From: Picochlorum sp. SENEW3
Lineage: Eukaryota
NCBI GenBank assembly: GCA_034226945.1
Contig: CP120456.1
Coordinates: forward strand, 806,001 to 870,000
DNA: 64,000 nt
Direction: 5' to 3'
How positions within the stretch are numbered: position 1 is the first letter of the stretch; every line of letters begins with the position of its first letter. The notes under the pieces were generated by a model that saw only the letters and a list, made by a program, of their open reading frames with translations, was not told where the DNA came from and ran no database searches. The position numbers and the translations under genes are program-made. Below are positions 21,876 through 24,981 of this stretch, one piece after another.

Positions 21876-22669
21876 TTAATCAGTCTTATCTGTATGCGTT
21901 ACTTGGGTTTCCTCAGACACCCTGCATGTCACACATGACCAACCAAAGTAATATTCTTTCTATCAATGTGTACAGATTCAAAAAACAACAAACGTACGCT
22001 GGGGCTGATGAGACATATGAGGTGTAATAGTTCCACCCAGCTCCCATCCACAGCGATGATATTGATGCAACAACCATTGGTTGGATGGCACTCTTAACAG
22101 ATACAGTCTTGTACACAAACACTTCGATGGAAAAATGGAGCAATGCGATGAGAAAAGATCCTAAGGTTGCAGCTGCAATGAAATAAGATGTACGATTCAG
22201 AAGCGGTATAGGGTATGTGCAGGCTAGAAAGAAGGAGAAAAATACGAGGGAAGCACGTACAGTATATTGGGACAACAGATGGATTGCGTGCACACAAAAG
22301 ACACAACATACAGGATGTCAACGTCCATGTCGCAAAAGTCCTGGCTTGCAACTCACTCACTGCATCATATACATATATATGCACACGTAGTGACAAGTTG
22401 TATCGAATCATACTATCTGAGAGAGAAAAACAAAAACCAAAGCAAGAAGAAGGAGTACAATTCAAACCCACCTTGCGCCGAATCTCCATTGTACAGATTG
22501 GCAGCCAGAGTGTCTGGATAAAAATATCCCAAAACAACTGTATATGTAGGTAAGACTGATGTGAAGAAGGGCGCATGAGACATCGTCTGTTTCATTCAAA
22601 CGTACCTGAAAACACCCGAAGGATGGCTACAAACTGAAGCCAACGACTCAGTGCACTCACCGATGGCAT
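21876..22669 (-). CDS. ERG28: Sterol biosynthesis scaffold ERG28, multi-exon
   Basis: SELQARTFATWTLTSC.LC, ATLGSFLIALLHF.IEVFVYKT, PMVVASISSLWM. Confidence 0.9.
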
Positions 22670-22862: not shown

Positions 22863-23723
22863 ATGGTGTTGTCATCCTCTGCCTTGACGCACCAATCGAT
22901 GGGGCTGTCACCCTCAGCGGCGACGACAAGGTCTCGTTCTCAGTTCCACCACCACACCCACAACTCGGGCACTGTTTTGACTCGAGCGATGCATTCGATG
23001 CATGCAGATGGGGACAGGAATGATGTCGACAGTAGTCGAAGGCAAGCTCTCCTGGCATTGTCGTCGAGCATGCTTGTCCTTCCGGGACTGGTGGGAAATG
23101 GATTGGCTGAAGAGCCTGTCAAGAGTGCGTACGATTTCGAGCTTCAATATCGCGGAGATCCCTTTCCCTTGAGTCAATACAAAAACAAGGTGACTGTATT
23201 TGTGAATGTGGCGTCAGAATGACCCTTATCAAACGTAAACTACCCTGGGCTACGGTACTTGTTGGAGAAATACCACAAGGACGGTTTTGAGGTGGTTTGC
23301 GTGCCTTGTAATCAGTTTGGTGGTCAAGCGCCTGGAACATCTGAAGAAGAGAGGCAAGATGCTTTGCGAAAGTTCGGTACGAGTGATATCACGGTGGTTG
23401 ATAAAGTTCTTGTGAATGGCCCAGATGCCCATCCTTTGTACAAGTATCTGAAAGCAGAGCAGCCCGTGTCGCTTCCAAATGCTGCTGGAAAGACAGCTGC
23501 GGCCATGTTATCCAAAGATCAGGGTGCAATTGAATGGAACTACACAAAGTTCTTGTGCAATTCTGCCGGGATTCCTGTGAAGCGGTTCAAATCTGGTTAT
23601 GATCCAGCAGAATTTGAGGGCGATCTGAGACTGCTCTTGGCCGGGAAGGATCCCTTGCCTGCAGAATGCGCCATGCATCCTGGAAGAATTGTGTGCAAGG
23701 TTGATCGATTGTTGGAAGGGTGA
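22863..23723 (+). CDS. GPX: Selenocysteine-containing glutathione/thioredoxin peroxidase (UGA at 23220-23222 read as Sec) with bipartite plastid/Tat signal
   Basis: ORFs 22857-23222 and 23259-23723 share one frame: VNVASE-UGA-PLSNVNY...PCNQFGGQ...IEWNYTKFL; the UGA sits exactly at the catalytic Cys/Sec position. Confidence 0.9.
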
Positions 23724-23751: not shown

Positions 23752-23817
23752 GGAGTCAGGCACATGGACATTATGACGGAGGATTCAACCTCTTGAGACT
23801 TCTGTGCATGCTTCTCC
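23752..23817 (+). promoter_or_regulatory. Candidate SECIS-like hairpin in the GPX 3' UTR
   Basis: AUGA-N10-AA spacing at 23773; UGAC/UGAG quartet closing GGAGG/CCUCU; lower helices GCACA/UGUGC and GGAG/CUCC; upstream of TGTAA at 23881; upper helix shorter than canonical. Confidence 0.45.
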
Positions 23818-24049: not shown

Positions 24050-24853
24050 ATGCCTTTCAAGCGCACCGTCGAAATTGGCCGTGTCGTCATGGTGACCTAC
24101 GGCGCAGACTATGGCAAGCTCTACGTCATTAGCGACGTTGTAGACCTCAATAAGGTATGATAATGCTTCCTTGAATCACTTTTATCGTTGATACTGCGCA
24201 CAGTGGAGGGATGGGTGGCATTCGTTGTCTTTGTGGGGTCTCTGTACTGGTGACGGCGACAATTCCTGCCAGACTGAAAGTCTGGATAGAGGGCTGTAAG
24301 AGTCATGTCACGTCTTATGATGGCATATCTGATTCTTCATCCCTGACAGGATGGTCCAAGAAGGGCATGTTGCCGAGGTTGTCGCGGCGGCAGCAATGAC
24401 AGCAGCAGAAAGAATCTTTTGCACGTTCGAGAAAGACACAGTGACTGGGATGTCATTAAAATAACAGATTGTCAATGGATTGTTCATCTAGGGGGAAATG
24501 CACATGGCAGAAGGAGAGGCACTACTAACACGCACCACCTTGTTCTTGTTTGTCTGCAGGCTTTGGTCGATCGTCCAGATGAGGTCCGTCGCACAATGAA
24601 TTTCAAGAGGATGGTAATGACTGATTTCAAGGTGGATATTCCACGCTTAGCGAAGAAGGCAGTGCTGAAGAAGGCACTGGAGGAATCTGATGTGTTTGCC
24701 AAGTTTGCTGCATCAACGTGGGGACAGAAGATGGCCAAGAGGGAGGCCAAGGCTAACTTGAACGACTTTGAGAGACACATGGCTGCTGTTAACAAGATGA
24801 AGCGCAGTGCCAAGGTTCGTCGTGCTTTCAACAAGCTCAAGAAGTCTGCATAG
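24050..24853 (+). CDS. RPL14: 60S ribosomal protein L14/eL14 (exons 24050-24154, 24560-24853)
   Basis: [41 protein letters not shown]...LNDFERH; TGTAA after the stop. Confidence 0.96.
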
Positions 24854-24981
24854 ATAGAATTATTTACACATACATGTAAAGACATCATAATGTTGTTTAT
24901 GTATTCAAAACCTCGTGTACTCAAAAAGAGGAAGAAAAATATCTCTAGAATATTACTATTTATTTCCAATATGGTGTATTC

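Follow-up and report, generated by a model that had tools for sequence, protein, structure and literature searches.

A GPX2-type selenoprotein glutathione peroxidase of Picochlorum sp. SENEW3 with a predicted thylakoid-lumen address and a candidate short SECIS

The gene at positions 22863 to 23723 of the window, by which is meant the whole stretch of 64,000 nucleotides analysed here, is by sequence the GPX2 orthologue in a green alga of the Picochlorum type. The best explanation of the locus as a whole, which we regard as likely, is that it encodes a selenocysteine (Sec) glutathione peroxidase (GPx) whose UGA would be decoded through a short SECIS element, and whose product would be imported by the Tat route to act as a lumen peroxidase carrying a structural disulfide. 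The selenoprotein part is not new, since the gene is the orthologue of the known Chlamydomonas selenoprotein GPX2, through which its status is already known. The features of the locus are the following, all on the forward strand.

22863..23723, forward strand: intronless coding sequence of a GPX2-type selenoprotein precursor of 286 residues, with the stop TGA at 23721-23723 (frame translation, tree, contigs crossing it without joints)
22863..23030, forward strand: predicted stroma-targeting part of the transit peptide, rich in Ser, Thr, His and Arg, with acidic residues only near its end and a presumed start ATG and cleavage site
23031..23108, forward strand: predicted thylakoid-transfer signal with SSRRQALL, 16 uncharged residues of mean hydropathy 2.0 and a GLA cleavage site (hand-made Tat rule with controls)
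23109..23720, forward strand: mature GPx-fold domain of 204 residues (Pfam, alignment to structures, AlphaFold model, Foldseek)
23196..23315, forward strand: in-frame GT..AG stretch, the false intron of database model P0002 (crossed unspliced by the contigs of 4/4 runs)
23220..23222, forward strand: in-frame UGA, very probably read as Sec (alignment with the peroxidatic Cys of 3e0u and 2vup, conservation, contigs)
23667..23696, forward strand: C269-x8-C278 pair of the C-terminal extension, a putative disulfide (conservation in the family, AlphaFold tail)
23760..23807, forward strand: candidate short SECIS (core common to L014, L015, L016, L021 and L023)
24050..24855, forward strand: downstream ribosomal-protein gene with an intron at 24155-24559 (splicing control for runs X7 and X8)

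Translation gives a single frame of 286 residues that is interrupted only by the TGA at 23220-23222 (residue 120, in the context VNVASE-U-PL) and closed by the terminal TGA. This agrees with the earlier note, whose coordinates all proved correct, including RR at 23037-23042 and the GLA/EE site at 23100-23114; the motifs NQFGGQ and WNYTKFL are unbroken, and the tail contains ECAMHPGRIVC. The idea that the terminal UGA, too, might be read through is ruled out by the TAA or TAG found there in relatives: the stop is TAA in run X8 and in the metagenome locus L021, and TAG in L015. The downstream gene, which we take to be eL14/RPL14, also adjoins the 3' side of GPX2 in L015, L016, L021 and L023, relatives of 43-62% GC. 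On the other side lies a divergent, Erg28-like gene (22094-22669, minus strand), whose intron at 22538-22605 appears as a joint in the contigs of runs X4 and X7.

The protein is a member of the GPx family. The Pfam domain GSHPx (PF00255) covers residues 95-197 with E=1e-24 and 86.5 bits against a cut-off of 27, and the catalytic tetrad consists of U120, Q155 (23325) and W225/N226 (23535-23540), of which Q, W and N do not vary across 44 rows. For the mature part, AlphaFold gives a model, built on the 44-row alignment, with a pLDDT of 88.9, and its top Foldseek matches are all GPx (TMq 0.68-0.72, with 0.71 to 2vup). In a tree of 34 rows the protein and Cre08.g358525 fall in a clade of 27 rows (support 100/98), outside of which lie the other GPx paralogues of the same genome (L003 and L002). 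Within it, a subclade of the window protein, L014, L015, L016, L021, L023 and P0005 (100/99) adjoins 'Nannochloris desiccata'. The available text of PMC9404770 gives Cre08.g358525 as GPX2, a known Chlamydomonas selenoprotein, and the accessible part of PMC3095285 lists GPX2 (CrGPxB) as a predicted chloroplast GPx. A Picochlorum genome paper (PMC11092101) counts two GPx among 11 selenoprotein matches, and the portions available of its main text make no SECIS or lumen statement on them. With Chlamydomonas reinhardtii GPX2 the gene shares the orthogroup, the Sec site, a presequence of the form RR-hydrophobic-A-x-A and the C-x8-C tail, but here it is intronless and followed by a short 3' element. 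Monomeric GPx4/PHGPx and the thioredoxin-dependent plant and trypanosome GPx (2vup, 2p5q, 3e0u) have the same fold and the same U/C-Q-W-N tetrad, whereas the active residue is followed as U-P-L here and as C-G-x in them, and QAP replaces QEP.

The statement of the earlier note that no intron signals lie nearby was wrong, as the TGA lies within a stretch of 120 nt (23196-23315) that begins with GT, ends with AG and keeps the frame. The best database match, P0002 from Picochlorum sp. SENEW3 itself, equals the read-through protein minus exactly the 40 residues of this stretch. All the named database models that were compared skip the TGA site; the stretches skipped differ between models, and the catalytic loop is lost. 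Splicing or a sequencing error had been named as what might undo the Sec reading, and the contigs of all four runs examined, out of 19, run without a joint across 23220-23222 and the entire GT..AG stretch. No other letter stands at the TGA among the 40 differences listed, 10 further differences lying outside that list. The RNA nature of the runs is deduced from splicing: in X7 and X8 the contigs show the neighbouring intron 24155-24559 spliced out, with no cover within it, and thus appear to be RNA-derived, while run X1 is probably DNA. Since contigs lose rare forms, minor splicing of 23196-23315 would stay hidden in them and may occur.

In the alignment to the solved GPx structures 3e0u and 2vup, the TGA falls on their peroxidatic Cys, which bears out the assignment of this position to the catalytic Cys/Sec. 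Among translated metagenome loci (12 retrieved, less L019 and L022, which duplicate L018 and L021), TGA followed by Pro stands at the same site in 10/10 distinct loci, and both flanks are conserved. Among 119 proteins carrying the family signature, Cys occupies the site in none, and Trp in two, which owe the residue to a gene caller reading through TGA.

The genome also holds the required machinery. The components whose absence would have spoken against the earlier proposal, tRNA-Sec, eEFSec and SBP2, are all present, and with SepSecS and SPS they make up 5/6 of the list (PSTK lay outside the search). There are two identical tRNA-Sec genes on different contigs (L005:1501-1588 and L006:1501-1588). 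The eEFSec, with its domains 3 and 4, was identified by Pfam domains; the matches of a first TIGR selB search were other GTPases and were discarded. Two SBP2-like genes were found against human SBP2 (7zjw_B), L043 (G000:C6:159721-159987, E=1e-18) and L045 (G000:C4:282288-282539, E=2e-11). Taken together, conservation, RNA-derived contigs and Sec machinery make it highly probable that the UGA is read as Sec.

Besides this gene, four others in the genome carry a TGA at a Sec site, namely a second GPx, SelT, SelK and SelU. No Sec-type thioredoxin reductase was found among four matches (L032-L035), the three MsrA all have Cys (L036-L038), and SelO (L047) ends in CSS with no TGA, which makes for fewer Sec forms than BLAST-based lists suggest. 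A GPx-like gene, L004 (G000:C11:658438-658941), has His at the catalytic position (NVASHS) and an N-terminal stretch resembling a membrane anchor. In the ESM Atlas, the top feature match of P0038 (0.95) is an unnamed diatom cluster of 361 residues with 55 members and no Pfam family, which may represent mis-modelled Sec-GPx of diatoms.

The candidate SECIS is built of a helix I of 8 pairs (23760-23768/23800-23807), the sequences AUGAC (23773-23777) and UGAG (23794-23797), and a helix II of 5 bp (23778-23782/23789-23793, GGAGG with CCUCU) closed by a loop of 6 nt, which leaves 16 nt between the quartets. It is the sole SECIS core, by eye and by script, in the 326 nt up to the next gene, and contigs of X4 and X7 cover it. 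A kink-turn scan found an AUGAC..UGA(C/G) core 44-55 nt past the stop in five sequences, and such a core also occurs in L023. In L014 the helix is kept, with a G-U pair turned into A-U, and the loop is altered with respect to the window. Helix II has 5 bp in the window and L014 and 7 bp in L016, L021 and L023, and the distance between quartets increases to 20 nt in L016 and L021, 25 in L023 and 29 in L015. The distant loci L017, L018, L024 and L025 have canonical elements, in which AAA follows the core by 11-12 nt and the quartets are 32, 37 or 40 nt apart (L025 is cut). About 140 nt past its first core, the 3' region of GPX2 in L023 holds a second ATG-CGAC..TGAG hairpin, perhaps a duplicated element.

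Compared with canonical type I/II SECIS (Rfam RF00031; PMC2647825), the element has the same AUGA/GA core between two helices, the same helix I under the internal loop, the same 3'-UTR site, and a G opening the helix opposite a pyrimidine. It differs in its 5-bp helix II, half the published minimum (the range being 11-16 bp, PMC2647825), its 6-nt loop and its 16 nt between quartets. According to the accessible text of PMC2375036, the canonical AA follows the quartet by 10-13 nt and precedes the GA by 15-39 nt; in the window an AA follows AUGA by 10 nt and precedes GA by only 6 nt. Conservation of the apical AA is likewise lacking (it is absent in L014, L015, L016 and L021); L015 (with CC) and L023 narrowly pass the positional limits. 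Lineage variants have precedents, as the parts available of two papers describe a long mini-stem in Ostreococcus (PMC2375036) and a 9-bp stem in Loki (PMC4989117), and some algal selenoprotein genes are given without a predicted SECIS in the consulted portion of PMC6627142.

None of 7 pattern matches in the 3' region, nor of 18 in the coding sequence, is a canonical element; Rfam SECIS_1 has no match over the genome, and an Rfam scan of the 3' region returned only an unrelated lncRNA (E=0.62). SECIS_1 finds even canonical elements weakly (2/7 loci, at 25.4 and 20.6 bits, below gathering), and its silence is therefore weak evidence. In free folding of four UTR stretches the short element folds no better than shuffles (z of 0.23 and -1.07). 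The loose kink-turn scan matched 16/60 shuffles and 2/11 non-Sec UTRs and is thus not discriminating, and it missed the cores of L023, L024, L025, SelU and L003; MAFFT, for its part, left the 3' arms of the elements out of register. Scanning 498 kb for a strict form of the motif gave two occurrences. A genome-wide pattern search gave 41 matches against 27 in a reversed control, and of the 30 examined only two lie outside long ORFs with a closed helix, behind the two Sec-GPx genes, a recovery that is circular given that the pattern was built from these two GPx elements.

The other Sec genes of the genome show a wide spread of forms. SelT has a near-canonical element, the second Sec-GPx a short core with 20 nt between quartets (L003:2011-2039), SelK an irregular one with 56 nt (L048, minus strand, 1907-1971), and SelU a SECIS-like core around about 130 nt (L049:2013-2152) that forms one long pyrimidine/purine hairpin of -40.7 kcal/mol, the opposite extreme to the GPX2 element. 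This suggests that constraint above the SECIS core is relaxed in this genome. It is also a genome of 13.9 Mb with two SBP2-like genes, of which L045 is the more diverged and could serve the irregular forms.

The strongest rival accepts Sec insertion and takes the hairpin at 23760-23807 for a relic or a product of chance, with recoding either weak or directed by a distant UTR or coding-region element. The absence of a folding signal over shuffles, the many shuffles matched by the loose scan, the short helix II, the AA-to-GA distance and a longer alternative pairing in L016 and L021, which does fit the published pattern, all speak for it. Against it, nothing in the 3' region is conserved besides the core, which is placed where L017, L018, L024 and L025 have canonical elements, the region before the next gene is only 326 nt long and free of any canonical element, and the other Sec elements of the genome are similarly short (the second Sec-GPx), near-canonical (SelT) or long and irregular (SelK and SelU). 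This rival is considered rather unlikely, and the short element is probably a working SECIS. In the literature found, from which subscription papers were largely absent, there is no report of a short SECIS in the Picochlorum lineage.

The second part of the proposal concerns the compartment. Presequences were judged by a hand-made Tat rule, distinct from TargetP and set by eye after the sequences had been viewed: RR, then 16 residues with a mean hydropathy of at least 0.8 and at most one charge, then small-x-Ala. The window protein and all nine loci with an N-terminus pass it (L017 is cut by a contig end), the stretch before RR being 41-66 residues long, one length class, in nine loci. Passing are also 7/13 named database models, 9/11 PsbP-family proteins of this genome (with looser position limits) and 2/184 background ORFs, one of which is itself a PsbP-family gene. 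As for the failing models, P0037 has RR and a hydrophobic region with a different cleavage class, P0021, P0030 and P0048 appear to be without the region, and in P0031 and P0034 RR is missing next to a hydrophobic region and A-x-A, which may reflect faulty models or a real loss.

Proteins of the PsbP family are lumenal Tat substrates, and their signals in this genome are alike in form (SRRQIVML and SSRRDALL, for example); TatC is present as well. The genome's Cys-GPx has a plain transit peptide with no Tat-type signal, the second Sec-GPx, starting MGGYFSS, is likewise without one, and in a protein that we presume to be PrxQ-like from a motif the presequence is short and lacks a hydrophobic core, which leaves GPX2 as a candidate lumen peroxidase. 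The diverged MsrA-like L038 (G000:C4:330085-330471) has KRR, a hydrophobic stretch and ALA/E before its domain, and is possibly another lumen redox enzyme.

The alternative is a Sec-GPx of the stroma, of the stromal face of the thylakoid or of mitochondria, in which RR and the hydrophobic stretch would anchor the protein in a membrane or belong to a plain transit peptide. We know of no lumen reductant for a GPx, which counts in favour of this alternative, as does the failure of 6/13 named models. The literature, too, goes no further than 'organellar/chloroplast' in the text available of PMC3095285 and PMC8234872; for the former, GPX2 is simply chloroplast-targeted, and the GPx of plants are stromal. 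On the other hand, RR, the hydrophobic region and small-x-Ala follow in the same order in 10/10 N-termini derived from DNA, among otherwise unalignable residues, the signal has the form of the genome's own PsbP-family signals, and few background ORFs pass. A location outside the lumen is accordingly judged improbable. The Tat reading of the earlier note gains support from a signal kept across the orthogroup, and location of GPX2 in the thylakoid lumen, as predicted from sequence comparison, is held with good confidence.

The job proposed has a counterpart in seed plants. In the accessible part of PMC3095285, Arabidopsis PrxQ is lumen-targeted, Chlamydomonas PrxQ is without a lumen address, and the authors consider that lumenal PrxQ may be streptophyte-specific. 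GPX2 would thus share compartment and job with Arabidopsis PrxQ, which belongs to a different family and uses Cys chemistry. The literature found, with subscription papers largely outside it, places neither GPX2 nor any selenoprotein in the lumen of the thylakoid. It does not extend to Dayer et al. 2008, where GPx targeting in Chlamydomonas is chiefly treated, so that the lumen prediction may already be in print. The portions available of PMC7539508, PMC6627142, PMC7230881, PMC8234872, PMC4989117 and PMC3753652 contain neither a lumen selenoprotein or lumenal GPX2 nor a short SECIS of the Picochlorum lineage.

Contrary to thioredoxin-dependent 2-Cys GPx, the protein is missing the resolving Cys of helix alpha2, which only 1/119 fetched proteins has, that one from outside the family, and it carries an extra C-terminal Cys pair. 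This pair, also reported in the earlier note as a possible disulfide, is present as C-x8-C in 94/100 family proteins that reach the tail, and three of the six proteins missing it run into introns. The tail with C269 and C278 is modelled by AlphaFold at a pLDDT of 87-91. L024 and L025 have another Cys pair instead, and belong to a GPX2 subgroup (L024:284-904, L025:971-1609) with a lumen-type signal, QFGCQAP and a Cys in an inserted loop. The genome encodes a VKOR-thioredoxin protein, presumably of the LTO1 type. A structural disulfide between C269 and C278 is compatible with this conservation and is slightly favoured.

The following course of events is proposed. Cytosolic ribosomes would read the UGA as Sec, with eEFSec delivering Sec-tRNA and SBP2 binding the AUGA/GA kink-turn of the short 3'-UTR element, 551 nt downstream. 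The precursor would then enter the chloroplast, lose its stromal part, cross the thylakoid membrane by the Tat route and be cut after GLA82, and the resulting enzyme of 204 residues would reduce H2O2 or lipid hydroperoxides in the lumen. From the pKa values of the two residues, Sec would be expected to remain ionised in the acidic lumen of illuminated thylakoids, and a Cys in its place to be protonated for the most part. C269-C278 would most likely be a structural disulfide made by the lumen LTO1 system, and electrons would more likely be supplied by a trans-thylakoid thiol relay than by glutathione.

That the UGA is instead a true stop or is spliced out to give a Sec-free or dead product, as the database models imply, is very improbable: every named model compared skips the site, a usable GT..AG pair exists, and selenoproteins are few in Picochlorum (MsrA and SelO being here without Sec), but the models skip differing stretches and remove the catalytic loop, and the TGA is conserved with both flanks in 10/10 loci and kept in spliced, RNA-type contigs of an organism with the machinery.

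In its broadest form, with about even chances of being right, the proposal is that GPX2 is a lumen selenoenzyme throughout chlorophytes, doing the job of PrxQ in seed plants with a Sec that remains active at low pH, and that its SECIS has come close to a bare kink-turn in Picochlorum. If true, the 11-bp helix and the apical adenines, so far taken to be necessary, would be dispensable, and standard SECIS searches would miss such genes. The 16-nt element, if working, would be a natural minimal SECIS, and its graded relatives, with 16, 20, 25, 29 and 32-40 nt between quartets, could test the roles of helix II and of the apical adenines. A compartment is proposed for a selenoprotein known but so far unstudied, every database model of which is defective at the active site. 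A candidate is thereby named for the removal of peroxide in the algal thylakoid lumen, beside the water-splitting complex, along with a testable reason why algae may keep selenium at this site.
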